From Candidatus Saccharimonadota bacterium (GTDB lineage Bacteria; Patescibacteriota; Saccharimonadia; Saccharimonadales; CAIOMD01), in contig JAGOOV010000002.1 of assembly GCA_017992295.1 (NCBI GenBank), positions 1 to 62,568 on the forward strand: DNA of 62,568 nt. Direction: 5' to 3'. The stretch's first letter is position 1. Each line of letters opens with the position of its first letter. The notes beneath the pieces were generated by a model that ran no database searches, was not told the DNA's origin, and worked only from the letters and a program-made list of their open reading frames with translations. Position numbers and translations under genes: made by a program. This document shows positions 7,135-58,747 of the stretch, piece by piece.

Positions 7135-7163
7135 CTGCTCCTCTACTCTCTTCTAGATAGCAG
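7135..7163 (-). promoter_or_regulatory. Hairpin with internal loop in the rpsF 5' leader (possible S6:S18 autoregulatory element)
   Basis: The minus-strand RNA reads CUGCUAUCUA-GAAGAGAG-UAGAGGAGCAG (helices CUGCU/AGCAG and UCUA/UAGA). It lies about 25 nt upstream of the rpsF RBS. Confidence 0.3.
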
Positions 7164-7387
7164 CCTGAAGTTAATATTGCAATTATTATAACTTACCCAC
7201 CTCTGTTGGTCAACAATTTAGCGATGGAGCATTTTTATAAAATATAAACTTTTGAAAGCTTGAGCTTATTACCAAGAGTATCTTAAAAGTGTCGTGTATT
7301 TAGGGATCGCCTGGTCATCGTTAAACTGAATTTAAATTGTTACAAATAATTGTCCTGAACGCCGCCAATGCTTTTATTTGATTTCGT

Positions 7388-9604
7388 TTATCTTGTTAGG
7401 TATTCGTCTCGGGGGTCATCGCTTACCGGTTCGTCAACATCTACATCACCGCCACCCAGCACTTCGTCAATAGTCGACGCCAGCACTTCTCGCGGTCGCG
7501 AGCCATCGGCATGACTAACTATTCCTCGTTTCTCCATCTCGTCAATCATTCTTGAGGCCCTGCCGTAGCCTATTCTCAAACGCCGTTGTAATAGGCTGGT
7601 GCTGGCTTTGCCGTTTTCTATAATTACTCCAATAGCATCCTTCCACAAATCGTCGCTGGCAGCACTATCACTGTACTCCATAACGATACTGCCCCGGCCA
7701 TGTAGCTGAACAGGCATACTTATAACTTCGTCGTTATATTGCGGTTCTCGCTGAGAGCGCAAAAAATCGTTTACCCGATTTATCTCTTTCAACTCAATTA
7801 AAGCGCCTTGCAAGCGTACCGGCTTGCCATCTATCGGTTTGTACAGCATGTCGCCGTAGCCTAACAGTTTTTCGGCGCCGGGCCCGTCTATAATAGTCCG
7901 GGAGTCGATTTGGCTGACTACCGTAAAGGCTATTCGGGAAGGCACGTTAGCCTTAATCAGACCCGTAATAACATCCACACTTGGCCGTTGTGTTGCCAAT
8001 ATCAAGTGTATGCCTGCCGCACGTGATTTGGCCGCCACTCTGGCCACAAGAGCCTCTATGTCACGACCAGCAGCCATCATTAAGTCGTACAACTCATCTA
8101 TTACTATTAGAATAAAAGGCATCCTTTCTTCTTTTCGATCTTCGTTATACTCGAAAATATTTCTTTTACCGGCTTCAGAAAATGTTTTTAAGCGTCTTTC
8201 CATTTCGGCTACCGACCACTTGAGGGCACTTACACACTTTTCGGGCTCGGTAATCACCGGAGTTAATAAGTGAGGAATATGATTGAAAGGTGTCAACTCT
8301 ACTTGCTTGGGGTCAACCAAGATTAGCTTTAGATCTGAGGGGCTATTTCGATACACCAAACTAGTTAGCAAGGCGTTAATCATGACGGACTTGCCGGAGC
8401 CAGTTTGGCCGGCAATTAACAAGTGCGGCATTTTGCCTATATTGGCGATTGTCGGCTTACCCGAAATGTCTTTACCGACTGCAAAAATTAAGGGATCTTT
8501 TTTATCTTTCCACTCTTTTGACGACAATATACTAGATAATCGAACCGTGGCTGACTTTAGATTAGGCACCTCTATGCCTACCGCCTTTTTACCCGGTATA
8601 GGAGCTTCTATACGTATTGTTTTAGCGGCTAATTCGTAGGCGATATTAGTTTCGTAAGCGACAATTTTGCTTAACTTTTGGCCGGGTGCCGGAAGTAAAA
8701 TATATTGAGTTACCCTTGGACCGACGTTAGCTCCCTCCATATCGACGGATATATTAAAATTAGCCAAGGTTGATTTTATAATCTCGGCATTAGCTTTAGT
8801 GTCTCCGGGGTCTGCTTTGTCTTGTTTTTGATTAAGCAAATCGAGGCTTGGGAATTTCCAGTCGGGATCACTTTCGGCGGTTAAGGCAGCATGGTCTTCG
8901 CTGGGGGAAAGTTTAGCCACCGCCGCCTTGAGTCCGCTCGTTTTATCTCTTTTAGTCTCTTCGTTAGGACTGTGATGAACTATTGGAACTCCTGCATGGA
9001 TTTGGAACTTATCGCCCTCGGCTTTCTCTTTAAGTTCTTTTAAGTCGGAATCCCTTTCTTTCTTCCTAAACAGGGCTAACAACCAAGCAAGCATCTTTTT
9101 TGGAGCAATGCCAAACATCACCAAAAAAGCTACCCAGGCAACAACAAGGAATAGCACAAACGCCGTGGTGCTATTTAAGAACGTCAGCAAGCCTTTACTC
9201 AGTAAGTAGCCAACCTCTCCACCGTAGGTTCCAACACTGGCAGCTTTAGAGGCAGATTGTTGATCGACAAAGACATGCATCATCCCCGCCAAACACGATA
9301 AAAAGATTGCGCTAGCCGCTAGTTTTATAAATGGAATAATATATTCTTCATTCTTGAACTTATGTACGCCCAAATACACTAGGACAAACGACAGTAAATA
9401 AGCAATTAAGCCAAACGCCCAACTGGCGATACTGAATAGTTTTACGGGTAAAGCGCCGCCCCAGCCAAAACCCCCCAATAACAAGAAGAAGGCCAATACA
9501 AACAAAATAAAAACAAAAACCTGGCGCCAGAAATAATTAGTTTTTGACTCTTCTTTAACCGTTTCCTTACGCTTGCGCTGGGGTCTTCTTTTTTTCTTTG
9601 CCAT
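7388..9604 (-). CDS. ftsK: DNA translocase FtsK
   Basis: N-terminal TM helices, Walker A GQTGSGKS, Walker B FILIVIDEL, and a gamma winged-helix (LLQRRLRIGYGRASRMIDEME). Confidence 0.95.
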   Translation of the reverse strand: MAKKKRRPQRKRKETVKEESKTNYFWRQVFVFILFVLAFFLLLGGFGWGGALPVKLFSIASWAFGLIAYLLSFVLVYLGVHKFKNEEYIIPFIKLAASAIFLSCLAGMMHVFVDQQSASKAASVGTYGGEVGYLLSKGLLTFLNSTTAFVLFLVVAWVAFLVMFGIAPKKMLAWLLALFRKKERDSDLKELKEKAEGDKFQIHAGVPIVHHSPNEETKRDKTSGLKAAVAKLSPSEDHAALTAESDPDWKFPSLDLLNQKQDKADPGDTKANAEIIKSTLANFNISVDMEGANVGPRVTQYILLPAPGQKLSKIVAYETNIAYELAAKTIRIEAPIPGKKAVGIEVPNLKSATVRLSSILSSKEWKDKKDPLIFAVGKDISGKPTIANIGKMPHLLIAGQTGSGKSVMINALLTSLVYRNSPSDLKLILVDPKQVELTPFNHIPHLLTPVITEPEKCVSALKWSVAEMERRLKTFSEAGKRNIFEYNEDRKEERMPFILIVIDELYDLMMAAGRDIEALVARVAAKSRAAGIHLILATQRPSVDVITGLIKANVPSRIAFTVVSQIDSRTIIDGPGAEKLLGYGDMLYKPIDGKPVRLQGALIELKEINRVNDFLRSQREPQYNDEVISMPVQLHGRGSIVMEYSDSAASDDLWKDAIGVIIENGKASTSLLQRRLRIGYGRASRMIDEMEKRGIVSHADGSRPREVLASTIDEVLGGGDVDVDEPVSDDPRDEYLTR

Positions 9605-37012: not shown

Positions 37013-38902
37013 CTAAACTATCAATTCGACAAATTTAACTATTAGCCAAGAAATAACCAAAAAAGTTATTGAAAAAACCGGGACAAATACAATTTTTAAC
37101 TTGTCTTTTGGCTGGAAAGTCCAAGATGAATAACCGGCTTGTTTAAGCTGCTTAAATAAATTTTTATCTTCCGGCTTAATCCTTTTAATTAAAAATCCCG
37201 TAATCAAAGCGGCAGTTGGTAGAATGTAAAATATCAAGTTGGGAACAAAATAGTCATCAAAATGATAATACCCATATCTCATCGAAGTGTCCAAACTATC
37301 AAGCAATGATGGTAAAGAAAATAAACCAAAAACAAAGAATGGTGTGGCCACGAAAAATAAAATTGTGGCAACTCTCCTTTCCCAGCAATATTCTTTCTGT
37401 ATTGTTTTAGCCAGTATCGGTGCAACGTTCTTAGTTGTATTTTTCGTTTTAATCAAGACTGTTGTTATTAATAGCCCTAAAATTGTTAGCAGGTTAGATA
37501 AACCAATTAAGCCAAGTTTTACTGGGTTTTTTCTTAAGTCCTTAAAAATTATTGAGCCTACTAAAAGTCCGGTAAGTACTGAGCTTAAAATAAATAGGAA
37601 TACGGTGATTACTATGGGGTATTTGGCGATAAAAGTTGAATAGTAAGTTTTTACAGGTGCTCGCGCTTTTAGCCACAAATCGTCGGTGAAAAACTTTGAT
37701 GGCGCATTGATTTCTATTTTGGTGTATTTGATATTTTCACCTCGTCCACTATAAAAGCCTTTAAAGTCACTGCCAAAACTAGCATTTTCATCAACATAAT
37801 ATTCGGTTTTTGTGTAGCTTTTTATTCCTTGAAAAACTTTTGGTGTAACATGGCCTATTACCCTTATAGTTACCGGAATTGTTTTGCTACCATAGACGCT
37901 TGTTGGGAGCAGCGGAAAATATATCTCTTTTGTGGGAAAGGTTACGAATATTCCTTTTTGGTTGGCTGATTTTTCATAAATATCATAATCTTCGGCGATT
38001 ATTGATGGATCATTTTGAATAGCTTGCGCTAATTCCTCCATAACAATTGCGCCTTGCTGGGATCTTAAATAACCGACTGGGTCGTAAGCGTAAGCCTGGT
38101 TAAATTCAGGATATTTTTGTTTTAAGTCGCCAATTAAATTTAAAAATTTCGGGTAATCATATTTATAAAAAAAATAATAATCTAGCTTGCTTTTTATTTC
38201 ATCGGCCGAATTTAACTTTTCGGGTGAGCTTATCCATGAAGCAATAAAAGAAAAATTTTTGCCGATGTAATTATCAAAAACCGGAATTGAACCAACTTCA
38301 ATTTTTAGCCCTTTGCCTTTCAAATAATCATATAGTCCATTTGCTGTTTTAGCAGTAATGATTTCCGAAGTGATGCCTTCTTTTTCTAAATGTTCATAAA
38401 CTACAACATCTTGTTCAACGCCATCCGCCAGGCTATTCGTTATGCCCATGCCCTTGTAGCGGCCTACAGTTTCTTCTGTACTTAGCGGGTTAAAATACGG
38501 CATTATAGGTATCGTGTAGAGTTGTGTCATTTGTAAAAATTTTTTTGCATTATCAAGATTCAATTTTGCTTTTTTCGAAATATCCTCACCTTTTAGTACG
38601 GGCATACTCTCAGCAACATCAATAGCGACTTTGTTTGGCTCCGCAGGAACGGGGAAAAGCCAAACAGCGCCATTGCTATTTTCTTTATCAATACCGACGC
38701 TGATAATCATTTTCTGCAAACCGTTACTGTAGTTGATAAACGCTTGTTGATTATCTTCGTCCGAGTAATCCCAACGGCCAGAATAAGGGTCGGGTTCTAT
38801 TATGGCTCCATCAGCCAAAACCGATTTAGGTAAAAAAGAAAATATCGCTAGAAGAAAAATAATAGTTAGCGATAAGTTAATAATATGTAGTAATTTTTTC
38901 AT
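37013..38902 (-). CDS. Large orphan membrane protein (signal peptide, ~400-aa extracytoplasmic domain, C-terminal multi-TM region)
   Basis: 629 aa. Begins MKKLLHIINLSLTIIFLLAIFSFLPKSVLA, contains the motif AVWLFPVPAEP, and has at least 5 C-terminal TM helices. AT-rich codon usage. Confidence 0.6.
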   Translation of the reverse strand: MKKLLHIINLSLTIIFLLAIFSFLPKSVLADGAIIEPDPYSGRWDYSDEDNQQAFINYSNGLQKMIISVGIDKENSNGAVWLFPVPAEPNKVAIDVAESMPVLKGEDISKKAKLNLDNAKKFLQMTQLYTIPIMPYFNPLSTEETVGRYKGMGITNSLADGVEQDVVVYEHLEKEGITSEIITAKTANGLYDYLKGKGLKIEVGSIPVFDNYIGKNFSFIASWISSPEKLNSADEIKSKLDYYFFYKYDYPKFLNLIGDLKQKYPEFNQAYAYDPVGYLRSQQGAIVMEELAQAIQNDPSIIAEDYDIYEKSANQKGIFVTFPTKEIYFPLLPTSVYGSKTIPVTIRVIGHVTPKVFQGIKSYTKTEYYVDENASFGSDFKGFYSGRGENIKYTKIEINAPSKFFTDDLWLKARAPVKTYYSTFIAKYPIVITVFLFILSSVLTGLLVGSIIFKDLRKNPVKLGLIGLSNLLTILGLLITTVLIKTKNTTKNVAPILAKTIQKEYCWERRVATILFFVATPFFVFGLFSLPSLLDSLDTSMRYGYYHFDDYFVPNLIFYILPTAALITGFLIKRIKPEDKNLFKQLKQAGYSSWTFQPKDKLKIVFVPVFSITFLVISWLIVKFVELIV

Positions 38903-39165
38903 GACTTAATCTTTAAATAATTTTGTTAAACATTCAATACTAACCTTAAGAGTTTTTGTTATTTTTCGGATAGTATAAAGTGTTAACCGGTGGTTAATGC
39001 CAACTTCAATTTTGGCAATAGCACAAAAAGCAATGTCAGATTTTTTATTTCTGATTCTGTATATTGAAAAATATTAAGTATATTTTGGTAATTTCGGTAC
39101 TGCTCTATCTTCAATTGTAAATATTTCTTTTGTCGCTCTCGTATAGTTTTGCTATATAAAAATTA

Positions 39166-39186
39166 TAAAAACGGCCGACGAAGCCG
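39166..39186 (-). terminator. Weak intrinsic terminator candidate after the endonuclease gene
   Basis: The minus-strand RNA forms CGGCU-UCGUC-GGCCG followed by UUUUU. Confidence 0.3.
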
Positions 39187-39225
39187 AAGCCTTTGAGTTT
39201 TGAGATTTTAGTAATCATGAAAAAT

Positions 39226-40743
39226 CTAAGCAGTTACCTCATTTAAAGTGGTTTTCATCTCAAGGCTATCAACAAATTTATCAATATCCGAGATTCTAAC
39301 TTCCAAACCATCTTTTTTGATAAAATCAAAATAGCGCTCAGTATCAATAAAAGATTTTGGCGAAATAAACACCGAGTAGGATTTCGTGCCTCTTTTTACA
39401 TATTCTTCAAGGTGACGATGTATAGAGAATGATTCTCTAATATGTTGTTGCGTTCCCGTTAGCAAGGTTACTTCGACTAAAACCGTGTCTTTATTTTCTA
39501 AACATTCAATATCGGGGCTTCCGCCAGAAGCGAAGCTCGTCGGCAGTCCTTCGTCATCTGAAATAAAATTTGGTTTCACGATAACACTCGGTAATTTTTT
39601 AAGGATTGCGAGGGAAGTCAAAAATTCCAATCGCAGTGGTTGTTCAATAACTTTCAAAATATCATCACTTGAAGATTTTTTCTGTGCCAAATTCAGCAGT
39701 TCGTTTTTAATAGATTCCCAAGCGTAATGATTAACCCATTTTTCCAATTCAGCTTTTGTGGTTTTTTCAGGAGCTTTAAATACCGTAAGTGTTGAAATTA
39801 AATCGTGGTCAACTTGTCCGATGTATTCAAAAAATTCTTTTTCCGTTTCAAATTCTTTGTAAGAAATGTAATTTTTTAGAATGTAATCTACGGTTACAGA
39901 TTCTTTTGTATTTATATCTATAAATCGACCGCCGCCGCGCAAAGAAAACAGTCCGGTTAGACGCATTTTTCTTATAAAATCGTCAGGATAATCACCGAGG
40001 ATTGAATTATTATCTCTCTTTGTTTCGTTTAACAATTTATAGCAAAGATCCAAAACTACCTCGTTACTGGGCGTGTAGCCGTGATTTTTGCGTAGTTTCT
40101 TTATCTTTTTATATAAATCTTCGGCATTGTCATCCTGCCAGCATAGCAATAATGGTATTTCTGCTCTGGATATACCAGCTCCTTTGTACGCAGGGTCATC
40201 GTTCAAAAATTTTATGGTTTGTATAAGCAAAATAAGCGGGACATTTTTATTTAAAACACGGCGAAACGGATTTTGGCGTTGATATTTTGCAAAAGCATTG
40301 GCAAAAACCATTAGCTCATTTTCTGGTTTTCCTTTATCCAGTAACATTTTTCCGCTTTCGGAAAATTTTATTTCTTCATCTTGCCAATACCAAACAAAGC
40401 CAAGTTCTTTGGCGATTTTAAACCAAGTATCAAATCTTGAAGGCCATCCCTTTTCAAATCCTGCTTCTTTGTGGCTTTGTGGGTTATCAGAAAATACTTT
40501 TTCGGTTTCAGATTCGCTCAATTCAATTTCATTCTTCCATTTATCCTTTAAAACCGAAGACACTTTCATTGGCTGATATAATCCTTTTTGAATTAAGGAT
40601 TTGGCAACCTTATCTATAATTTCATTTGTTAAAATTTCGCCGTCATATTCCGCAAGTACAGCCAAAAAATCCTTCAATCGTTCAGGATTTCTCATTGTAG
40701 TTGTAAACAGTAATGGCTTGTATTCAGATTGTCGTTTATTCAT
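39226..40743 (-). CDS. AlwI-family type II/IIS restriction endonuclease
   Basis: The N-terminal LFTTTMRNPERLKDFLAVL signature is one I recall as characteristic of AlwI/PleI/MlyI/N.BstNBI-family enzymes. The C-terminal PD...E.(K/T)-like core reads GGSPDIECLENKDTVLVEVTLL. It sits directly downstream of two methyltransferases. Confidence 0.7.
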   Translation of the reverse strand: MNKRQSEYKPLLFTTTMRNPERLKDFLAVLAEYDGEILTNEIIDKVAKSLIQKGLYQPMKVSSVLKDKWKNEIELSESETEKVFSDNPQSHKEAGFEKGWPSRFDTWFKIAKELGFVWYWQDEEIKFSESGKMLLDKGKPENELMVFANAFAKYQRQNPFRRVLNKNVPLILLIQTIKFLNDDPAYKGAGISRAEIPLLLCWQDDNAEDLYKKIKKLRKNHGYTPSNEVVLDLCYKLLNETKRDNNSILGDYPDDFIRKMRLTGLFSLRGGGRFIDINTKESVTVDYILKNYISYKEFETEKEFFEYIGQVDHDLISTLTVFKAPEKTTKAELEKWVNHYAWESIKNELLNLAQKKSSSDDILKVIEQPLRLEFLTSLAILKKLPSVIVKPNFISDDEGLPTSFASGGSPDIECLENKDTVLVEVTLLTGTQQHIRESFSIHRHLEEYVKRGTKSYSVFISPKSFIDTERYFDFIKKDGLEVRISDIDKFVDSLEMKTTLNEVTA

Positions 40744-40747
40744 AAGT

Positions 40748-41653
40748 TTAATAGTTAGTGATTAAAACTTCCTTAATTATCTTTTTGCTGTTGTTATGAT
40801 AATTAATGTAGTTGCTTTCAATTTTGTGTACTTTATATTTTTTTATCCATTTCAACAGTAGGTCGTTTTTACTTCCGTTATAGTAAGTAACATTCGATAA
40901 GGCAAACCTAGCGCCTTTTTTGTCTAAGTCTTCAATCATTTTTAATAAATCGGCTTCTGATTTTCGATTCCACAATTTATTATATTCACTTGCGGATATT
41001 AAATATGGAGGATCTAAATATACAAAATCATTTTTTGAATATTTTTTGTTTGAAAAAAACTTTTTAAAATCTTTTGAGGTTATAGATATTTTTTTATCAT
41101 GTACAAAATCAAAGTAGCCATTCAAGGCATTAACAACATTTTTATTAAAATCAACATTGCCCACAGGCAAATTAAATTTACCCCCGCCATTAAATCGCAA
41201 CATCCTATTGAATCCGTAAATAAGCAGAATATACAAAATTAGGGGGTCATTTTTCTGATAATTATTTACGCACAATCTCAATTTATCGTATCCGTCTTTA
41301 TTAAATTTTGCGTAATAAGTTTTTTTAAATTCCTTTTTTAGCGAATCAGGGACAATGTCCTTTTTATATGAATGCGAAAGTTTATATTTATGGATTATTT
41401 TTTCGGCTTCCTTAAAAAAACCTTCTGGATTTTTTGCGCTAGCGATCAAAAGCTTATGAATATTGATTAAGTGTTTGTCTATATCGTTAAGAAAATATTT
41501 TTTCGCTTCAATATTCAAAAATACTGTGCCTCCGCCGACAAAAGGTTCATAAAAATTATTTATTTCTTTGGGAAATAAATTTACCAGTTGTTTCATCAGC
41601 TTGTACTTGTCCCCGACGTAAAACAAAGGAGATCTTTTTATTTTATTTGTCAT
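40748..41653 (-). CDS. D12-class N6-adenine DNA methyltransferase (Dam-like), second MTase of the operon
   Basis: Motifs LFYVGDKYKL, FYEPFVGGGTVFLN (motif I) and VYLDPPY (motif IV). Its ATG overlaps the upstream gene's stop by 4 bp. Confidence 0.88.
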   Translation of the reverse strand: MTNKIKRSPLFYVGDKYKLMKQLVNLFPKEINNFYEPFVGGGTVFLNIEAKKYFLNDIDKHLINIHKLLIASAKNPEGFFKEAEKIIHKYKLSHSYKKDIVPDSLKKEFKKTYYAKFNKDGYDKLRLCVNNYQKNDPLILYILLIYGFNRMLRFNGGGKFNLPVGNVDFNKNVVNALNGYFDFVHDKKISITSKDFKKFFSNKKYSKNDFVYLDPPYLISASEYNKLWNRKSEADLLKMIEDLDKKGARFALSNVTYYNGSKNDLLLKWIKKYKVHKIESNYINYHNNSKKIIKEVLITNY

Positions 41654-43458
41654 AGTTTTGCCTTTGTTACGAAAAGATATTCTTTGTGATTATTAAAATT
41701 GGTATTGCCTGCGTTGAAATGCCTATAATTTTTTTCAAAAACCTTTGTCGGGCCTTTTTTTTGTAAAATCTGCTCGATTTCTTGTAGTGTGATTTTATTT
41801 TTTGAGGAGTTGCTTTTTGAATCGTATGTATTGTTGTACGAAACGACTAAATATTTAGCGTCAAGGTCTCTCACGAGTTCTGCAAATTTATCTTTAGCGT
41901 TGTTTCGACAATAATCGCTCATATTTTCCGGTTCTGGCTTTAGGGCAACACCAAAAAGTTTTGGTTTATCCCATTTAGTCAAGGTTTCAAGTACATGATA
42001 AAATCTGCTGTATTGTCTTGAGTTGTATGGTGGATCAATATAAACAACATCAGCATTTATTTTTTTAGCTAAAGCGTTCGCATCTTCTTGAAAAATTGAT
42101 ATTTCTTGCGTGTCTATTGGGTCAATCGGTTTCATAAAAAAACTATCATTGATAAATTCCTTTTTGAAATAAGCATCAAAGTGCCCAACCGTATTGGCGA
42201 TTTTATCTGCGGTATAAAGCAATGAAGCGATTAGCATGTAATATTCTCGTTCAGTTAAATTATTTTTATTTTCTTCTATATTTTCGCGAATAAATCCGAT
42301 AATTTTTGCTGAATTTTTGCTAAAAAATTTGCCACCAAAATTCTTGGAAAAGTAGTTTTCCTCCAAGTCATCGCCATAAATATTATTATAGCTTTTGACG
42401 ATGTTATCTATTTTATTTTTATCCCATCCCTCATCTCCGAAAAAAGCGCGATATATTGCATAATTTGAATGTAAAAAATCATTTAATAGAACTTTTTCAA
42501 AATGTTTTGTCGCGACAGCAGAAACAACGCCTGTTCCAGCGAAAATATCTGCAAATGAATTTCCGCTACATTCTTTGTTGATTATAGAAAAAATCCATTC
42601 AATCAATTTGTGTTTATTTCCGATATATCTGCGATTGTGTAGTTGTAGATGATTTTCTTTTACTTGTGGAATGTAAAAATAATTTTCTTGGATTTGTTCG
42701 GCGGTTATCTCATAGGTTGGTCTTTCGGTTTCAAACATAGCAAAAAGCGTGCCCTGTATTCCATCTGCCACATAATCAATACCTGCTTTTTGTTTATTTA
42801 TTTTTTCGTAAAAGCTGTAATGGTCGTTTTGAGAAACGATAATAAAATCAATGACTGGTATTCCCATTATTTCGCCAGCTTGTATGATTGTTTCAATAAT
42901 TTGATTGTCCTTTTCGCTTGGTGAAGAGTCGCCGGAAGGATGATTATGAACCAAAATAACGCTGGCGGCATTTAATTCGGTCGCAGGATAAAATATCTCT
43001 CTTGGGTGTAGCAATGCTTTATCTAAAAGACCGACACTGACAATTTCTTTTTTGAGTAAAACATTTCGTGCGTTTAAATAAAGACAAACTAAATGTTCTT
43101 TTTTCTTATCTCTTAAATCGTAAGTAAGGTATAAAATATCTTGAGAATTTTTTATAACAATATCGTTGGTTTTGTCTTCGTCATAAAATCTTTTTACCAA
43201 TGAAATCGCGGAAGCAATTTGTAGTGCTTTTGCTTGTCCGATTCCTGAAATCTCCAAAAGATCATTAACGGTTATATTCAAAAAGTTTTTACCGAATTTT
43301 TTGATAATATTTTCAGAAAGTTGTCTGACATTTTTCCCCTTAATCCCACTACCTAAAAGAATTGCCAAAAGGTCACTTTTTGAAAGTGCGTCAGCACCTT
43401 TTTCCAGAAACCTTTCTCTTGGGCGATCAATTTTTGGTATATCCTTAATATTTGGCAT
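41650..43458 (-). CDS. Fusion protein: RadC-like JAB/MPN domain (N-terminal ~225 aa) + D12-class N6-adenine DNA methyltransferase (C-terminal ~330 aa)
   Basis: The RadC part has RPRERFLEKGADALSKSDLLAILLGSG, the HhH segment ISGIGQAKALQI, and the JAB motif HNHPSGDSSPSEKD. The MTase part has RRYIGNKHKL, FADIFAGTGVVS and VVYIDPPYNSRQY. It is one uninterrupted 602-codon frame. Confidence 0.85.
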   Translation of the reverse strand: MPNIKDIPKIDRPRERFLEKGADALSKSDLLAILLGSGIKGKNVRQLSENIIKKFGKNFLNITVNDLLEISGIGQAKALQIASAISLVKRFYDEDKTNDIVIKNSQDILYLTYDLRDKKKEHLVCLYLNARNVLLKKEIVSVGLLDKALLHPREIFYPATELNAASVILVHNHPSGDSSPSEKDNQIIETIIQAGEIMGIPVIDFIIVSQNDHYSFYEKINKQKAGIDYVADGIQGTLFAMFETERPTYEITAEQIQENYFYIPQVKENHLQLHNRRYIGNKHKLIEWIFSIINKECSGNSFADIFAGTGVVSAVATKHFEKVLLNDFLHSNYAIYRAFFGDEGWDKNKIDNIVKSYNNIYGDDLEENYFSKNFGGKFFSKNSAKIIGFIRENIEENKNNLTEREYYMLIASLLYTADKIANTVGHFDAYFKKEFINDSFFMKPIDPIDTQEISIFQEDANALAKKINADVVYIDPPYNSRQYSRFYHVLETLTKWDKPKLFGVALKPEPENMSDYCRNNAKDKFAELVRDLDAKYLVVSYNNTYDSKSNSSKNKITLQEIEQILQKKGPTKVFEKNYRHFNAGNTNFNNHKEYLFVTKAKL

Positions 43459-43561: not shown

Positions 43562-43651
43562 TGGCGGAGAGGAAGGGATTCGAACCCTTGATGACATTGC
43601 TGCCATACTCACTTTCCAGGCGAGCCAGTTCAACCACTCCTGCACCTCTCC
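43562..43651 (-). tRNA. tRNA-Ser (anticodon GGA), CCA encoded
   Basis: The reverse complement folds as acceptor GGAGAGG/CCUCUCC, anticodon stem CUCGC/GUGAG with loop CUGGAAA, a long variable arm (class II), T-arm AAGGG-UUCGAAU-CCCUU, discriminator G, then CCA. Confidence 0.9.
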
Positions 43652-52492: not shown

Positions 52493-53833
52493 TTAATTAT
52501 TAATAATCTTGGTTACTTTTTTTACATAGTTGTTCAAAATAGTCGGTGTATCGGCTTCGGCATTGAGGCGTAGCAGTGGTTCAGTATTGCTTGGTCTGAC
52601 GTTTACCCAGCCATCGTTAAAAGTTAAAGTTAAGCCATCCAGCCAATCTATCTTTGCATCACTAAACGATTTGGCAATTTTGTTCATTGCTGCGTCTTTG
52701 TCGTCAATTTCAAAATTGGTCTCTTCTACCGAGTAGTATTTACGAAACTTGTCGGCCAGCCTACTCAATTTGATTCCACTTTTACAAAGTAGCGCCAAAG
52801 CAACCATTGATGCAATCAGACCACTGTCAGCCATAAAGTTATTCCTAAAATAATAGTGGTGGCTGTGTTCACCGGCAAACAAGGCGTTGTGAAGCCGCAT
52901 CTCGTTTTTAATAATGCTATGCCCTACTTTGGTACGGATTGCCTTACCGCCGTGTTTTTCGATGGTTTCTTTGGCCACTCGCCCGACAATAGCGTTATAC
53001 AAAACGGTAGAACAAGGGGCTTTGCCCAAGAAATACTCCGCTAAAATTGATGTCATGACCGTACCGCTGATAGGCACGCCTTTTTCATCTATTAAAACCG
53101 CCCTATCGCCGTCTCCGTCAAAAGCCAAGCCTGCATCACATTTTTGTTGCTTAACCACGTTTATTAAATCTTGCAGATTTTTTGATTCAATCGGGTTAGC
53201 CGGATGATTGGGAAAACCACCATCCAATTCAAAATACATTTCTATAACATCGAACGGAGCATAAGGTTCCAACTCCGGGAATATCTTGCCTACCATGCCG
53301 TTACCGGCATCGACGGCTATTTTTAGCGGTTTTAAGTCGCCCATATCGACAAAAGACAGCACGTGAGTTATCCAATCTTCGGTCACATCACGGCTTATTA
53401 CCCGACCTTTGTTCGTCTTGTTTTTAAATTTATTGGTTTTCACTTTTTCTCTAATATCACTTAAACCGGTATCTAAGCCAATCGGTTTGGCCTCTTCACG
53501 GCAAAATTTTATGCCGTTATACTCACCCGGATTATGACTGGCCGTAATCATAAGACCACCGGCTAGTTTATATTTACCTACCGCGAAATAAATCATATCG
53601 CTGGTTACCATACCGATATCCCAAACATCCCTACCTTGTGATACCAGCCCTTTAATCGCCGCCTTGGCTAATTCGTCGCTGTCCGATCGCATATCTCTAC
53701 CAACGGCTACCGGCCCTTCTTTTGGCAACCAGTCGGCTACAGCCTTGGCAATTTTTTCAACTATATCGTTGGTTAGCTCTGTACCAACTTTACCTCGAAC
53801 ATCGTAAGCCTTAAAAATATCATCTATGACCAT
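52493..53833 (-). CDS. Phosphomannomutase/phosphoglucomutase
   Basis: Active-site loop TASHNPGEYNGIKF and metal-binding motif DGDGDR; 446 aa. Confidence 0.93.
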   Translation of the reverse strand: MVIDDIFKAYDVRGKVGTELTNDIVEKIAKAVADWLPKEGPVAVGRDMRSDSDELAKAAIKGLVSQGRDVWDIGMVTSDMIYFAVGKYKLAGGLMITASHNPGEYNGIKFCREEAKPIGLDTGLSDIREKVKTNKFKNKTNKGRVISRDVTEDWITHVLSFVDMGDLKPLKIAVDAGNGMVGKIFPELEPYAPFDVIEMYFELDGGFPNHPANPIESKNLQDLINVVKQQKCDAGLAFDGDGDRAVLIDEKGVPISGTVMTSILAEYFLGKAPCSTVLYNAIVGRVAKETIEKHGGKAIRTKVGHSIIKNEMRLHNALFAGEHSHHYYFRNNFMADSGLIASMVALALLCKSGIKLSRLADKFRKYYSVEETNFEIDDKDAAMNKIAKSFSDAKIDWLDGLTLTFNDGWVNVRPSNTEPLLRLNAEADTPTILNNYVKKVTKIINN

Positions 53834-53851
53834 GTTTAGTATTCTATCCCA

Positions 53852-54682
53852 TTAAATTTCGATTTGCCTTTTTAAAAAGTAAAAGAGCTTCATAGTTCCG
53901 AATTTTTGGTATATGTCGATGGCGTTAATGAGCAATGATGATTTTTCGGAATCCTCACCAAGAATATCTTTCGGACTTTCTACTTCTTTAATCTGTTTTT
54001 TTAGGTTTTCTAAACTCTTGTTGTGGTTTATAAAGCTGTCTGATCTAACAGAAAAAACCTCCGGTAACTTATTTTTTAGAGGGCTATGGTCGTATTCTAT
54101 GAACACTTCGTCAATAGAGCCAAACCAATTTTCTGTTTCGATATCACCAATGTTGGCTGACAGTAAGAAGTGCCTGGGCAATACAAACCTTACATGTATC
54201 TCGTCTCCGTAAGGCTCCCCGTCGTCGGTAATGCCCTCAACCAACCTAAACCCTACGGCTTCTACCGGGTATTCTCCCTTGCGGACCGCCGTTTCTTTTG
54301 GTTCCCAGTAGTGCAAATAGTCATAGAAGGTAAATGTCTTTTCTTTGTTTCTTTTTTGTATAGCGCCTGATTTTTCTTCGGAAAGGCGATTGATTTCTAG
54401 ATACTGCAAATAATTGTTATTGCAAGCGCTTCTTAAAGTGCTTTTTGCCGCAATAATTATCTTGTGCCTGATGGTTTCGCCGACCTCTTTTAGCTCGTTA
54501 CTGTCTAACGGTAAAGATAAAGCCAATGTAGCTTCGAATTTTTCTTTGGCCTTATTTAACTCACCTGTTGTTTCGGCAATTTCTTGGTTAAACCTGTCAA
54601 ACTCTTCTTGTTGGCCCCAATTGTTTTCAATCCGCCAATTTGTCACTGGTATAATTACACTAATATTACTTTCATTTGTCAA
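53852..54682 (-). CDS. Hypothetical protein (276 aa)
   Basis: A long ORF with coding-like composition. No recognised motif. Confidence 0.5.
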   Translation of the reverse strand: MTNESNISVIIPVTNWRIENNWGQQEEFDRFNQEIAETTGELNKAKEKFEATLALSLPLDSNELKEVGETIRHKIIIAAKSTLRSACNNNYLQYLEINRLSEEKSGAIQKRNKEKTFTFYDYLHYWEPKETAVRKGEYPVEAVGFRLVEGITDDGEPYGDEIHVRFVLPRHFLLSANIGDIETENWFGSIDEVFIEYDHSPLKNKLPEVFSVRSDSFINHNKSLENLKKQIKEVESPKDILGEDSEKSSLLINAIDIYQKFGTMKLFYFLKRQIEI

Positions 54683-54810
54683 TAATCATTTTTGATGTTA
54701 AAATATCCGAACCTTGAGCGTTGGCTCTTGGTGGTACCTGCCCAAATTTTTGGGCCACTCTACGATTGGAGGGCACGTTGCGTCAAACACAGACCAAGCA
54801 AAGAGTTTTA

Positions 54811-55332
54811 GTGTTCAACTTCTCTGGTTTACCAGAGAACAAGATATACGAAACCATCATGGATGGACTATGGGGTCTTTCCAAGGTGGCGGGCGTGAGG
54901 AGAGTTCATCTGGATCGGTGGGGGAACAGGCTCCGTGTATTCCTTGAGCCCGACGCCGATGCAGGCATGGTGGCGCAGTTGGTAGAGCGCCGCCTCGAAG
55001 CACTCCGGGTATACCATGAGCACCAGGGGCTCTTCGAGCAAGTCGACAAATCTGTCACATACCACGACTGGTTCGTCAGCGTGGATCTCAATGCCAAACT
55101 GAGGTACGTACTAGGGGTTGATGGGCTGAATGAGCTCATCAATCGCGTCAAGGCGCTCGACATCGACGGACGCTCGCTTTCAGTGAGTTCTGGCGGATTT
55201 GTCGTCAAACCGAACAAGAAGAGGGTAGTATTTTTCTATCGTCTTCACGGCGACATTCTTTTCTACCTCAACCTCTTAATTGCGTCGAAGCTCATGGACC
55301 CTGACGCAAGGAGGCAAGTCCAGGAAGACTAG
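54811..55332 (+). CDS. Orphan protein encoded in the GC-rich block (start uncertain: TTG 54721, GTG 54811 or ATG 54859)
   Basis: This is the only frame in the block with balanced, protein-like composition (...LRVFLEPDADAGMVAQLVERRLEALRVYHEHQGLFEQVDK...). GTG 54811 has AAAGAG 5-6 nt upstream. Antisense frames are Ser/Thr/Arg-rich. Confidence 0.5.
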   Translation: MFNFSGLPENKIYETIMDGLWGLSKVAGVRRVHLDRWGNRLRVFLEPDADAGMVAQLVERRLEALRVYHEHQGLFEQVDKSVTYHDWFVSVDLNAKLRYVLGVDGLNELINRVKALDIDGRSLSVSSGGFVVKPNKKRVVFFYRLHGDILFYLNLLIASKLMDPDARRQVQED

Positions 55333-55342
55333 CCTGTAAAAT

Positions 55343-55619
55343 GTGGGTGGCCCCCGGTAGTATCGAATGCGTAAAGCATTTGGTTAGACACTTGCTTACT
55401 AGCTGCCTTCAGTGGCGCTGGGCAAGATCTAAGCTTAGCTTATATCGCACTCGATCTATCGCGGGGCCCCCACGCCCGTATACCCAAAGCGGGCCGTTGT
55501 AGCTGCGTTCTACCGCGCTCCGGCCCACTTTGGGTATCTTTAGGCCAGACTGTGGCTAATTTGCAGAGGCTGTTGTAAGCAAACGTTTACGACTCTCAAA
55601 GCCCAGTCCGGCCTTTTTT
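55343..55619 (+). ncRNA. Structured RNA element 1 (3'-UTR element or independent ncRNA), ending in a stem + U-run
   Basis: Three helical units. (a) 55343-55371 pairs with 55446-55473: about 25 bp, with two single-nt bulges, one A-C mismatch and one small asymmetric internal loop. (b) 55480-55495 pairs with 55522-55537: 10+5 bp. (c) 55542-55555 pairs with 55602-55614 and is followed by TTTTT. Confidence 0.4.
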
Positions 55620-55669
55620 CTTAGCAGTCAATATAACCCGATCCTAATTAGATTTCTAAAAAATTTAAC

Positions 55670-55698
55670 TTGAATTATTTGCCATTCTAAGGTATAAC
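55670..55698 (+). promoter_or_regulatory. Sigma-70-like promoter candidate in the AT-rich spacer between the two structured elements
   Basis: TTGAAT-N17-TATAAC. Confidence 0.4.
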
Positions 55699-55704
55699 GA
55701 TACG

Positions 55705-56215
55705 TATTCAATCGGATTGCTGATTGACGATGAGGCGCGAGACGGTTTAAACATCAAACAATATTTGAAAAATAGCTATCTCTGACGGGTCTTGGACTCT
55801 CTCTTTGCTTGGTATCCAATTGCTATCGTCCCTCTTTTTAGAAATGAGGGAACTTTCTGCCACTAGGCAGACGCCTGGGTATTAAAGCCTTAGAGCTTAG
55901 CCATTCTGGCGATGTGCCAGAAGGATTATACTCTAAGCGAGCAGAGAAAAAGAAAAAGCGTTTCGAGCCAAATTACTTAGGTGAATCGCCCAGAGCAATT
56001 GCTGGGACGCGGCACAGCGCAGTGTCTAGCATACCTTTGTAATTTGGTGCAACGCCCCCGTGCTTCTCTGAAAAGGCGCTTGTGTTATGCGCCGCAAACT
56101 GGCCCAATCAGGGCCACAACCGTGAAAGGGGCCTGCAAAGAAGGCCCATATCTGCTACGCCCTTGGTGAGGGCCTCCGACATTCCTCGTCGGCGGCCCCA
56201 CCTTGGGCCTTTTTT
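55705..56215 (+). ncRNA. Structured RNA element 2 (~500 nt candidate ncRNA of unknown class)
   Basis: At least 9 local hairpins with stems of 5 bp or more, mostly GC-rich. Their arms are at 55829-34/55846-51, 55856-61/55866-71, nested 55889-95/55931-37 around 55904-10/55916-22, 55989-93/56002-06, 56075-79/56089-93, 56101-05/56111-15, 56129-33/56143-47 and 56076-80/56088-92 region equivalents further 3' at 56176-80/56188-92. There is no credible ORF and the element ends at an intrinsic terminator. Confidence 0.4.
56194..56215 (+). terminator. Rho-independent terminator on the + strand
   Basis: GGCCC-CACCTT-GGGCC followed by TTTTTT. The only upstream + strand sequence is non-coding. Confidence 0.65.
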
Positions 56216-56240
56216 ATTTGCTTACTACTAAAATCAAATT

Positions 56241-57572
56241 TTAATAACCGACCTCTTTGAGCACCTCTTTAGCAACTACCCGTTCATCCCAAGGTACCTT
56301 TTTTCCACCCATGTTGCGATAATCTTCGTGGCCAATGCCTGCCAAAACAACGACATCCCCTGTTTTAGCGTCTAAAAAGGCCTGTTTTATGGCTTCTTTC
56401 CTATTGGCTATTTCTTTACATTTGTCGGCTCCCTTGGCCTTTACAATCCCTTCTTTTACTGCTTGACGTATCAAGTCGCCGTCTTCGGTGTAGGTTTCAT
56501 CGTCAGTCAAGTAGATATTGTCGGCGTATTTTGCCACCACTTCACCCATTATTGGCCGCTTGGCTTTATCTCTGTCGCCAGTAGCTCCAAAGACAATGCT
56601 TACCTTGCCTTTAGCAACTTCTTGCAGCGAAGTTAAAACGACTTTAAGAGCATCCGGTGTAACTGCAAAATCGACTAAAACCGTGAATGGTTGACGGCCG
56701 TTAACTACTTCCATGCGGCCCGGCACGACCGGCACCTTTTCTATCCCGGCTACAATAGATTCCGACTCTATTCCTATTTCGGCTGCCAAAGCAGCTGCCA
56801 TAGAGGCGTTATATACATTAAATTCACCTAGCAATTTGGTCTTTAAGTTAACGGCGATTTTACTACTTACCAGCCTGAACGAAGTGCCATTCGGGGTAAG
56901 CTTGATTCCCTTTATCTGATAGTTGGCATTCAGCTTGCCAACGTCAACCTTGCCTTTTTTAACTTTAGTCGCGAAAAAGTCATACCAATCATCATCGGCA
57001 TTCAATATTACTTTTTGTGGGTTGTACTCTGTTAATAAGCGGGCTTTGGCGGAGGCGTAAGATTCCATTGTGCCATGATAATCCAGATGATCTTGACTTA
57101 AATTGGTCACCAGGGCCAACTCCACCGGCACCCCCAAAGTACGATACTGATCAAGGGCATGGCTGGTCACTTCTAAAATAACCCAATCTACTTTTGCTGC
57201 ATTGGCTTTAGCAAAAAACTTCTGTACCGCCCAGGCGCTAGCCAAGGTCATGTGGGTTTTATTAGCCTCTAGCCGACCGTTAACTTCGATAAAAGCGGTG
57301 GTGTACAGAGCAGTTTTTAAACCACTTTCTTTTAGGATTTCGTTGATATAGGCACAAGTCGTTGTTTTTCCATTGGTACCGGTAACGGCGATAACTTTCA
57401 TTTTTTTAGCGGGGAACCTGTAAATGGCGTTAGCTAACAAGGCTTTCTGTTTTCGATATGTTTTTTCTACCTGCCTAATGGCTGTTTTGGGGATAACCTT
57501 TCTGGCTAATTTTTTAACGCTACTCATACTTTTAATTATAGACGATAATAATAGTTTATTTTTTAACGACAA
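56241..57572 (-). CDS. murE: Mur ligase, MurE-type (UDP-MurNAc-L-Ala-D-Glu : diamino acid ligase), non-canonical specificity motif
   Basis: Motifs VTGTNGKTTT, GDRDKAKRP and GIGHEDY. The start is uncertain (TTG 57572 or ATG 57527). Confidence 0.85.
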   Translation of the reverse strand: MSLKNKLLLSSIIKSMSSVKKLARKVIPKTAIRQVEKTYRKQKALLANAIYRFPAKKMKVIAVTGTNGKTTTCAYINEILKESGLKTALYTTAFIEVNGRLEANKTHMTLASAWAVQKFFAKANAAKVDWVILEVTSHALDQYRTLGVPVELALVTNLSQDHLDYHGTMESYASAKARLLTEYNPQKVILNADDDWYDFFATKVKKGKVDVGKLNANYQIKGIKLTPNGTSFRLVSSKIAVNLKTKLLGEFNVYNASMAAALAAEIGIESESIVAGIEKVPVVPGRMEVVNGRQPFTVLVDFAVTPDALKVVLTSLQEVAKGKVSIVFGATGDRDKAKRPIMGEVVAKYADNIYLTDDETYTEDGDLIRQAVKEGIVKAKGADKCKEIANRKEAIKQAFLDAKTGDVVVLAGIGHEDYRNMGGKKVPWDERVVAKEVLKEVGY

Positions 57573-57622: not shown

Positions 57623-58747
57623 GTGATAGTTTTGGGTATCGAGACCAGTTGTGATGAAACTGCTGCCGCCGTTGCAAAAGACGGCACTATACTATTGTCC
57701 AGTCAAGTCGCCAGCTCTGTTGATTTACATGTGCAGTACGGCGGAGTTGTACCAGAGATAGCCGCCCGTAGCCATATTGAATCGATTAACGCCGTAGTTA
57801 GTCGGGCGCTGGACGAAGCCGCTGCTCAAGTCTCTCTCGATCAGCATCAGCGTGCTTTAAACGTAACCCAAAACCCCTGGGATTTAATCGATGCCATTGC
57901 GGTTACCAAAGGTCCGGGGCTACTGGGCAGTTTATTAATCGGGGTTATGACCGCCAGAACCTTAGCCATTGCCAAAAACAAACCGCTTTACGGGATCAAT
58001 CACGTGGAAGCCCACGTTTATTCTAATTTTTTAACAACGTCTGATAACGCTAAAGAAATAAATCCAGGCGCTTCATCACACCCTCCCCGTCCTCAATTCC
58101 CTATTTTGTCCCTGATTGTCAGCGGTGGGCATACTCAATTGGTAGTATTTAATAACCATTTCGACTATCGCCTGCTTGGTCAATCGGTTGATGATGCTAT
58201 TGGTGAAGCCTTTGATAAGGCTGCAAAAATCATTGGCCTACCCTACCCCGGCGGACCGAGCATCGCCCAGGCAGCCAAAAAAGGCAATCCCCTCAAATAC
58301 GATCTACCAAAAGCCAAAGTAGAGGGGCCCTATAATTTTTCTTTTTCGGGCTTAAAAACGGCCGTTTTACGCTTGGCGCAAGAGCAAGCCGGCGGCGATT
58401 ATAGAATGCCAAGTTTTGAAATCCCGCCACTGTTAAACAATCAACAAAGATACGATATTGCGGCTAGCTTTCAGCGTGTTGCCATTGAAACTGTAGTAGA
58501 AAAAACCGTAAAAGCCTACCGCATGATTAAACCTAAAACCGTATTAATAGCCGGCGGTGTGGCGGCTAATCAGGAGCTTCGCAGTCAATTGTCATTAGCT
58601 TTACCGGTCGCCATAACTTACGCACCCGCAAACTTGTGTACGGACAACGGCGCCATGATTGCTTCTTTAGGCTGTTTTAAGGCTATGGCCGGCCAACGAC
58701 CCGACGATCCGTACTCATTAGCAGTTAACCCTAGTTTAAAAATGTGA
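57623..58747 (+). CDS. tsaD: tRNA N6-adenosine threonylcarbamoyltransferase TsaD
   Basis: Begins (V)IVLGIETSCDETAAAV and contains the HVEAH metal motif. GTG start. Confidence 0.93.
   Translation: MIVLGIETSCDETAAAVAKDGTILLSSQVASSVDLHVQYGGVVPEIAARSHIESINAVVSRALDEAAAQVSLDQHQRALNVTQNPWDLIDAIAVTKGPGLLGSLLIGVMTARTLAIAKNKPLYGINHVEAHVYSNFLTTSDNAKEINPGASSHPPRPQFPILSLIVSGGHTQLVVFNNHFDYRLLGQSVDDAIGEAFDKAAKIIGLPYPGGPSIAQAAKKGNPLKYDLPKAKVEGPYNFSFSGLKTAVLRLAQEQAGGDYRMPSFEIPPLLNNQQRYDIAASFQRVAIETVVEKTVKAYRMIKPKTVLIAGGVAANQELRSQLSLALPVAITYAPANLCTDNGAMIASLGCFKAMAGQRPDDPYSLAVNPSLKM

Follow-up and report, generated by a model that had tools for sequence, protein, structure and literature searches.

The subject of this analysis is a GC-rich block located between murE and the phosphoglucomutase gene pgm on a 62,568-nt stretch of Candidatus Saccharimonadota bacterium (contig JAGOOV010000002.1). 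This whole stretch is called the window in the following, and all coordinates are window positions (1 to 62,568). The block carries the gene of an orphan protein (open reading frame X, ORF X) and two structured RNAs, rnaA and rnaB. The two RNAs constitute two new structured-RNA families and ORF X a new protein family, all belonging to a narrow clade of Saccharibacteria. We tentatively propose that they make up a lineage-specific protein-RNA locus, in which the RNAs would be the core and ORF X their dedicated RNA-binding partner within a small ribonucleoprotein; the arguments for and against this proposal are nearly in balance. Related loci and contigs that were compared with the window are denoted by L-numbers (L001, L102 etc.) and homologous proteins by P-numbers.

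The block at 54676-56218 is the most prominent GC-rich segment of the window (GC content of 0.50-0.55 versus a window mean of 0.412). In 300-nt windows the GC content increases from 0.39-0.40 at 54350-54799 to 0.54-0.55 at 54800-55249, dips to 0.39 at 55550-55849, where an AT-rich spacer is found, returns to 0.52-0.53 at 55850-56299 and is 0.46 within murE. Elsewhere in the window just three short stretches attain a GC content of 0.50 (400-nt windows). The initial annotation had described a GC-rich block at 54700-56220. Its composition was confirmed, while its start had to be moved slightly upstream to the promoter at 54676 and the block turned out to be interrupted by the dip at the spacer. 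Two transcription units are predicted on the + strand. The first comprises a promoter (P1), a Shine-Dalgarno sequence, ORF X, rnaA and a terminator, the second a promoter (P2), rnaB and a terminator.

The evidence for structured RNAs is provided by folding stability and by base-pair conservation. Compared with dinucleotide shuffles, folding of 55333-55625 gave z = -8.9 and folding of 55700-56220 gave z = -6.1, in agreement with the initial annotation, which had noted two hairpin-dense non-coding stretches, each closed on the + strand by a stem and a T-run. The rnaB terminator was found by a simple consensus scan; the rnaA terminator is absent from that scan but seen in the fold and conserved in relatives. 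When the divergent locus L102 was included (60% identity in rnaA, 50% in rnaB), 11 of the 95 consensus pairs of rnaA had changed on both sides, versus 3.2 ± 1.5 after shuffling (none of 500 reached 11) and 0-6 in slid-partner controls. For rnaB 28 of 141 pairs had changed on both sides, versus 9.4 ± 2.5 after shuffling (none of 500 reached 28) and 5-11 in the slid controls. Within the 5' hairpin of rnaB one pair occurs as A-U, G-U and G-C and another as U-A and G-C. The 58-nt hairpin of rnaA retains all of its 22 pairs unchanged. RNAduplex runs between rnaA, the 5' untranslated region of the ORF X transcript and rnaB gave only meaningless full-length duplexes.

Substitution levels agree with this picture. 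rnaA is 90% identical to L110, where the synonymous sites of ORF X are saturated (proportion of differences pS 0.55, corrected divergence dS ~1.0), and the spacer together with the 5' end of rnaB is 88% identical to the same contig. Between the lineage of the window and a second lineage that is about 94% identical to it, rnaB differs at 7 of 486 positions, versus a synonymous divergence of 0.10-0.40 in neighbouring genes (0.18-0.40 in pgm, hyp276 and murE). At the level of sequence comparison these data show that purifying selection acts much more strongly on both RNAs than on synonymous sites and that compensatory changes maintain their helices. A 1-nt indel in L089 disrupts a 53-aa ORF inside rnaA (55341-55502) and a 2-nt deletion in the same locus a 62-aa ORF inside rnaB (55981-56169). 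Due to these frameshifts we consider both RNAs to be non-coding. More than 12 G-U pairs of the + strand would turn into A-C mismatches if the opposite strand were transcribed, so that the RNAs are read as + strand transcripts.

The RNAs could be followed into more distant relatives by a chain of matches. The whole block matches L102 (nhmmer E 1e-56), L102 matches L009 from the rnaA 3' hairpin to the 5' end of rnaB (E 3e-16), and L009 matches L010 over the entire rnaB (E 1.5e-9). L009 is also matched by the 3' hairpin of rnaA (E 3e-6 and 3e-16). Exactly five lineages were detected among 83 sources (1 Mb) with a covariance model that combines the 5' hairpin of rnaB and the GACGAAnGGAGG motif (model R2). 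P2 was read by eye from the sequence, the consensus scan not listing this + strand site, and its -35 and -10 hexamers recur at the matching position in L110, L102, L009 and L010. Across 55626-55730 the two 94% lineages show 0 differences in 105 positions, versus 5-8% in the flanking genes. As this conservation exceeds the need of a promoter alone, the spacer is a possible candidate for a regulator-binding site. A metagenome pattern scan with two invariant islands of rnaB returned seven hits, all of them chance matches on unrelated high-GC contigs; the metagenome collection is evidently without this clade.

ORF X is a real gene. Several observations carry this conclusion: a run of eight consecutive third-position synonymous changes versus the 94% lineage (54783-54816), with no codon pattern in the substitutions 5' of 54778; two full-length homologs, P0018 (55% identity) and P0016 (35%); ratios of non-synonymous to synonymous divergence (dN/dS, Nei-Gojobori) of 0.19 versus L089 and 0.35 versus L110; and a confident structure model. 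The Shine-Dalgarno sequence GGAGGG lies 4 nt ahead of the TTG at 54778 and is kept in L089, L110 and L102. P1 is the top promoter-like site of the consensus scan (10 of 12 matches, extended -10), and a TTGTCA/N17/TATAAC equivalent was read from the sequence upstream of the positional counterpart ORFs in L009, L010 and L015. The initial annotation had listed piled-up ORF entries at 54714, 54721, 54868 and 54906 and taken the + frame ending at 55332 as the only protein-like one. These entries are present, and only that frame is supported as coding. It remains open in four lineages at 35-55% identity.

The protein family is extremely rare but real. A word-indexed search of 5.8 billion proteins returned only its own cluster, an exhaustive phmmer search of 1.84 billion representatives added P0016 (E 8e-19), and a profile search added P0018. 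The cluster members are annotated as 'Candidatus Saccharibacteria bacterium'. ORF X belongs to no Pfam, PHROG, PADLOC or NCBIfam family and has no significant match in the PDB by sequence profile or fold, in line with the initial annotation, which had recognised no family motif in it. Its rate of evolution is about double that of its neighbours (35% versus 63-64% amino-acid identity to L102; dN/dS of the neighbour genes 0.05-0.12). With a GC content at third codon positions (GC3) of 0.62-0.64 it is the sole gene of the window at or above 0.55, all others, groEL included, having values of 0.27-0.50; the pattern of GC1, GC2 and GC3 is typical for a gene. The AlphaFold2 model (4-sequence alignment; mean predicted local distance difference test, pLDDT, 84.1; predicted template modelling score, pTM, 0.72) contains two tandem beta-alpha-beta-beta-alpha units. 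A G113-x-x-G116 motif is invariant in four ORF X sequences and is followed by beta-beta-alpha.

Some further observations concern the ends and the interior of the gene. Its codons 1-28 (54778-54861) have a dN/dS of 0.13 versus 0.40 for the remainder, and MRQTQTKQRVLVF is identical in L110; several gene callers place the start downstream of these conserved codons. Two similarities were rejected. A NAC-domain similarity from the PDB profile search (E = 0.29) is noise, and a tRNA D-arm-like string GGTGGCGCAGTTGGTAGAGCGCC (54966-54990) is due to chance, ARAGORN finding no tRNA there and the string being unconserved in L110 and L102.

Five Saccharibacteria lineages, namely the window, L110, L102, L009 and L010, have the module at the murE-pgm site; the initial annotation had proposed to check whether the ORF and the RNAs co-occur and covary in related genomes. 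In L102 (MurE 64% identical) the order is pgm, hyp261, ORF X, 914 nt of non-coding DNA and murE. The L110 contig, about 1 kb long, covers ORF X, rnaA and the beginning of rnaB. L009 and L010 (MurE 66% identical) share this order as well as the promoters and terminators, and they too have a GC-rich ORF. The top MurE relatives in the genome collection come without exception from metagenome-assembled genomes of Saccharibacteria/Saccharimonadales. In two further loci, L084 and L085, murE directly abuts pgm. The features of the locus are collected in Table 1.

Table 1. Features of the murE-pgm locus in window coordinates.
Feature	Position	Strand	Remarks
Promoter P1 of the ORF X transcript	54676..54704	+	-35 TTGTCA, 17-nt spacer with TG, -10 TAAAAT
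Predicted 5' untranslated region (UTR)	54712..54777	+	small hairpins and Shine-Dalgarno GGAGGG (54768-54773); start inferred from promoter
ORF X	54778..55332	+	184 aa, TTG start; orphan protein
rnaA	55333..55620	+	288 nt, forms the structured 3' portion of the ORF X mRNA, directly after the ORF X stop
rnaA element 1	55343-55473	+	long irregular hairpin, ~130 nt
rnaA element 2	55480-55537	+	invariant 58-nt hairpin
rnaA element 3	55542-55613	+	long terminator hairpin; U-tract 55614-55619 (TTTTTT)
AT-rich spacer with promoter P2	55621..55704	+	-35 TTGAAT 55670-55675, 17-nt spacer, -10 TATAAC 55693-55698
rnaB	55705..56216	+	~510 nt, about 20 helices; 5' end inferred from promoter
rnaB 5' hairpin	55708-55727	+	followed by GACGAUGAGG
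rnaB conserved islands		+	GCGAUGUGCCA and AAGCGUUUCGAGC...GCAACGC
rnaB terminator	56194-56209	+	stem; T-run 56210-56215; found by consensus scan
pgm	52493-53833	-	phosphoglucomutase; flanking gene
hyp276	53852..54682	-	hypothetical protein, conserved divergent neighbour; likeliest start 54646, giving 264 aa
murE	56241-57572	-	short-form MurE ligase; flanking gene
tsaD	57623-58747	+	TsaD; beyond murE

How could the three parts work together? In the mechanism that we propose, rnaA and rnaB would be the functional core and ORF X, with its two predicted tandem units and the invariant G-x-x-G, would bind rnaA and rnaB and form a small ribonucleoprotein. It may also regulate its own expression through its 3' tail, rnaA. 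The high GC content would then result from selection for stable RNA structure and for an unusual codon usage in ORF X rather than from a foreign origin. ORF X is considered as RNA partner because rnaA is part of its mRNA and the three parts are co-inherited in five of five lineages, because its predicted fold belongs to a type that often serves RNA binding, and because the invariant hairpin exceeds the needs of a terminator. The link between protein and RNA is weak. A small protein with dedicated RNAs is a plausible though unproven description, for which the parts' adjacency and joint inheritance speak together with a fold resemblance that is weak and below threshold.

This resemblance is to tandem KH proteins, which are the best Foldseek hits of ORF X in two independent libraries (PDB E 5.5e-3, BFVD E 1.8e-3). 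Like KhpA/KhpB and the KH1-KH2 domains of FMRP, ORF X has alpha/beta repeats and a G113-x-x-G116 at the start of a long helix. We treat the resemblance as a weak lead from the model and not as a result, and a number of points weigh against it and against the proposed ribonucleoprotein in general. The fold scores (E 2e-3 to 6e-3) stay sub-threshold and the template modelling scores (TM 0.24-0.29) are below significance. Pfam returned 0 families at E <= 1 to 5, the KH models being unmatched, and no KH protein was retrieved by the PDB sequence-profile search. DSSP assigns residues 106-125 of the model to one continuous helix that spans the G-x-x-G, which in KH domains forms a loop between two helices. 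The topology would fit ferredoxin-like units (RRM, HMA, S6-like) equally well, and the beta-alpha-beta-beta-alpha arrangement also occurs in numerous domains without RNA-binding activity. The ORFs of L009 and L010 have no homology to ORF X detectable by tblastn, hmmsearch, phmmer or hhalign, and a model of the central domain of rnaB (model R1) found only the window and L102, with no match in L009, L010 and L015 even with filters off. The few sequences in which changes were counted had also served to derive the consensus structures, and most of the covariation comes from the single divergent sequence L102. Furthermore, the transcript ends are predictions only, and co-occurrence in five syntenic lineages may reflect common descent only.

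An alternative, possible though rather unlikely, is that the elements are functionally independent. rnaA would then be a stabilising or regulatory 3' UTR with terminator, or the source of a 3'-UTR-derived small RNA, and rnaB a stand-alone RNA with a regulatory or structural role that does not need ORF X. The separate promoter and terminator of rnaB fit such an arrangement, as do the fast evolution of ORF X next to RNAs that keep invariant islands and the failure to find a significant RNA-binding fold for the protein. What argues against independence is the 58-nt hairpin of rnaA, which with its 22 unchanged pairs exceeds the requirements of termination or transcript stability, as well as the tight order of the three parts in all five lineages.

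A foreign island recently acquired from a donor of higher GC content, such as a mobile element, a defence cassette or what is left of a prophage, is improbable. The initial annotation had described the block as looking horizontally acquired, and its composition (GC 0.52-0.55 versus 0.41; GC3 of ORF X 0.64 versus 0.27-0.50 in other genes), its orphan and fast-evolving protein, the unrelated GC-rich small ORFs that follow murE in some 20 of 80 Saccharibacteria loci and the adjacency of murE and pgm in L084 and L085 all speak for such an origin. Yet the same module occupies the same site in five lineages with saturated synonymous divergence (dS ~1) and MurE identities of 64-66%, which argues against a recent acquisition. 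No integrase, transposase, reverse transcriptase, flanking direct repeat or adjacent tRNA/att site was found within several kb of the block, an absence that the initial annotation had in part already noted, and the block contains no tandem repeats. Unlike in a retron, the RNAs have no reverse transcriptase beside them, their neighbours being pgm, a hypothetical protein, murE and tsaD. Nothing similar to the block was present in IMG/VR and a phage genome collection (plasmids were not searched), and its proteins had no match in PADLOC or PHROG. Finally, the high GC3 persists in the ORF counterparts of L102, L110, L009 and L010 rather than ameliorating. As it is kept in every lineage, it points to a maintained composition and not to unameliorated foreign DNA; selection on mRNA structure would be consistent with the folding of the ORF X region (z = -4.9 versus dinucleotide shuffles). 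From these sequence relations we conclude that the module is old and has been passed on vertically in a narrow clade. It is possible that it was inserted long ago in the ancestor of this clade.

Could rnaA or rnaB be a highly diverged RNase P RNA, transfer-messenger RNA (tmRNA), 6S RNA or signal recognition particle (SRP) RNA that the models missed? The initial annotation had offered a diverged housekeeping RNA as one alternative. Both RNAs are GC-rich, stable and conserved and have strong promoters in a reduced genome, no RNA of this kind is found elsewhere in the 62-kb window, and short RNase P-like strings (GUGCAAC, GUGAAAGG) occur. We nevertheless regard this as very improbable. Rfam 15 gave nothing at gathering thresholds in the window and 15 related loci, and nothing meaningful at E <= 10 in 54500-56400 or in L102, L009, L010 and L110. 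At this latter threshold and in the same sequences the RNase P models RF00010 and RF00011 had no match, and the P4 strands (GAGGAAAGUCC / ACAGAA..GGCUUA) were absent from the block on reading the sequence; the short look-alike strings are not conserved in L102 and were rejected. ARAGORN and Rfam found no tmRNA in the window. The 6S and SRP RNA models had no match at E <= 10 in the block, although the sensitivity of the Rfam models for 6S RNA is known to be low, such that 6S RNA is excluded less firmly than the other classes. A rod with the central bubble of 6S RNA or an SRP domain IV motif was not seen either, the long hairpin of rnaA having small internal loops only. In addition, the model of the rnaB 5' end recognised only 5 of 83 sources, and L015, a close relative, has four small genes at this place.

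That ORF X is spurious and the entire 1.5 kb a non-coding structured RNA is exceedingly improbable. It would account for the stable folding of the ORF region, for the presence of only 4 synonymous but 6 non-synonymous changes in the ORF body versus the 94% lineage, and for the variable start calls (173, 184 or 185 aa); it is contradicted by the codon-periodic synonymous run, the dN/dS values of 0.19-0.35, the frame kept open in four lineages with a conserved Shine-Dalgarno sequence, the gene-typical codon-position composition and the confident AlphaFold2 model.

An assembly chimera, the other alternative of the initial annotation, is suggested by the abrupt composition shift and by contigs of several other assemblies that end in or after rnaA, but has a practically negligible probability, because more than 20 independent contigs (JGI, ENA, Logan, NCBI; differing samples and assemblers), some of them 76-140 kb long, show the identical arrangement with identical junctions. 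These contigs represent the two 94% lineages plus mosaics, and the contig breaks fit a strain-level allele mosaic as seen in L001.

Strain-level variation within the locus was observed as follows. L001 differs from the window at 23 of 293 positions (8%) of rnaA while its flanks are identical. Hypermutation or diversity generation was ruled out as the cause, L001 carrying the allele of the 94% lineage; L001 is accordingly a recombinant. Compared with the window over 53365-56215 it is a mosaic, in which pgm and hyp276 are of the window type and the 3' part of ORF X and rnaA of the 94%-lineage type. L098 to L101 contain further allele combinations, indicating recombination between co-occurring strains inside the locus. 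The contigs of L003, L008 and L096-L099 end at positions equivalent to 55373-55697 of the window, in or just past rnaA, which fits strain-level allele heterogeneity and not misassembly.

We compared the proposed protein-RNA locus with known systems. OLE, ROOL, GOLLD and raiA-motif RNAs resemble rnaB in being long (~510-600 nt for rnaB), multi-helical, lineage-restricted and independently transcribed (a prediction for rnaB), and in mixing invariant single-stranded islands with covarying helices. OLE works with dedicated partner proteins that are encoded nearby. rnaB differs from all of them by its Saccharibacteria host, by its five known lineages and by having no link to phages or tRNA clusters; the OLE, ROOL, GOLLD, raiA and HEARO models of Rfam 15 had no match at gathering thresholds or at E <= 10. 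The loci of Rsr (Ro60) and Y RNA also consist of a protein gene followed by a co-inherited structured non-coding RNA on the same strand, but ORF X does not belong to the Ro/TROVE proteins (no Pfam match) and no tRNA-like module was found by ARAGORN or Rfam. In type III toxin-antitoxin systems (ToxIN, CptIN, TenpIN) a protein of ~170-200 aa is likewise encoded beside a non-coding RNA, with a terminator in between. Here, however, the RNA is located downstream instead of upstream, PADLOC has no match, the locus is chromosomal and syntenic rather than mobile, and no tandem repeat array exists, which argues against a type III antitoxin. In the literature that was searched no Saccharibacteria-specific non-coding RNAs or RNA biology are described.

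The site downstream of murE is variable across Saccharibacteria. In about 20 of 80 murE loci a GC-rich segment, exceeding the mean of its locus by at least 0.09, follows directly downstream of murE. Among these loci are L011-L015, L018, L031, L035, L038, L060, L072, L073, L078 and L079 (~7150-8500 in locus coordinates), and the segments often carry small ORFs on the opposite strand with a GC3 of 0.64-0.88. Apart from L013 with L014 these ORFs have no detectable mutual homology, and the segments have no Rfam match. L015, a complete 799-kb Saccharibacteria chromosome, has a murE-pgm gap of 2.9 kb with 54-60% GC. Four small unrelated orphan genes (141-189 aa, GC3 0.60-0.68) are located there (L015:7300-10120, - strand), each with a TTG..N17..TATAAx promoter, a GGAG Shine-Dalgarno sequence and a hairpin terminator. 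Neither the ORFs of L015 nor those of 15 further GC-rich loci show kinship to ORF X detectable by tblastn, hmmsearch, phmmer or hhalign, and model R2 found no rnaB-like RNA in L015. The segment downstream of murE may be a phylum-wide hotspot with fast turnover. In L009 an additional AT-rich orphan gene of 128 aa with its own promoter-like region lies between the rnaB terminator and murE (L009:7319-7705, - strand); it is absent from the four other lineages.

On the other side of the module, a counterpart of hyp276 adjoins it in L102 (64% identity) as well as in L009 and L010 (28-29%). The composition of hyp276 is normal for the genome, no family match was obtained in Pfam, PHROG, PADLOC or NCBIfam, and its AlphaFold2 model was unusable (pLDDT 36.6). 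Judged by its conserved position, hyp276 is an unproven candidate member of the module. Remote from the block, four successive - strand genes at 37013-43458 have a GC content of 0.28-0.35 versus the mean of 0.41 and abut the sole tRNA gene that ARAGORN detected in the window, a tRNA-Ser gene at 43562-43651. They could represent an acquired island of AT-rich DNA.

The genomes of Saccharibacteria, like those of other Patescibacteria, measure about 1 Mb and contain hardly any non-coding DNA. Because of this streamlining, some 800 nt of conserved folded RNA together with an orphan protein are unlikely to be idle. Large bacterial non-coding RNAs with many helices are rare and have historically proven to be ribozymes or ribonucleoprotein cores. 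A more far-reaching version of our proposal, speculative and on balance doubtful, would be an undescribed Saccharibacteria ribonucleoprotein of rnaB, rnaA and ORF X, built around a new class of large non-coding RNA with a size and intricacy like those of OLE, ROOL and GOLLD. Kept in an ultra-small, streamlined genome, it would potentially be catalytic or scaffolding and maybe part of a wider GC-rich island with fast turnover downstream of murE in many Saccharibacteria. If the ribonucleoprotein reading is true, the locus would provide two RNA families and one protein fold family, all of them new, and would also give access to the GC-rich segment that recurs behind murE in this phylum. If it is false, GC-rich, foreign-looking DNA in an AT-rich genome would still mark structured RNA genes and not transfer.

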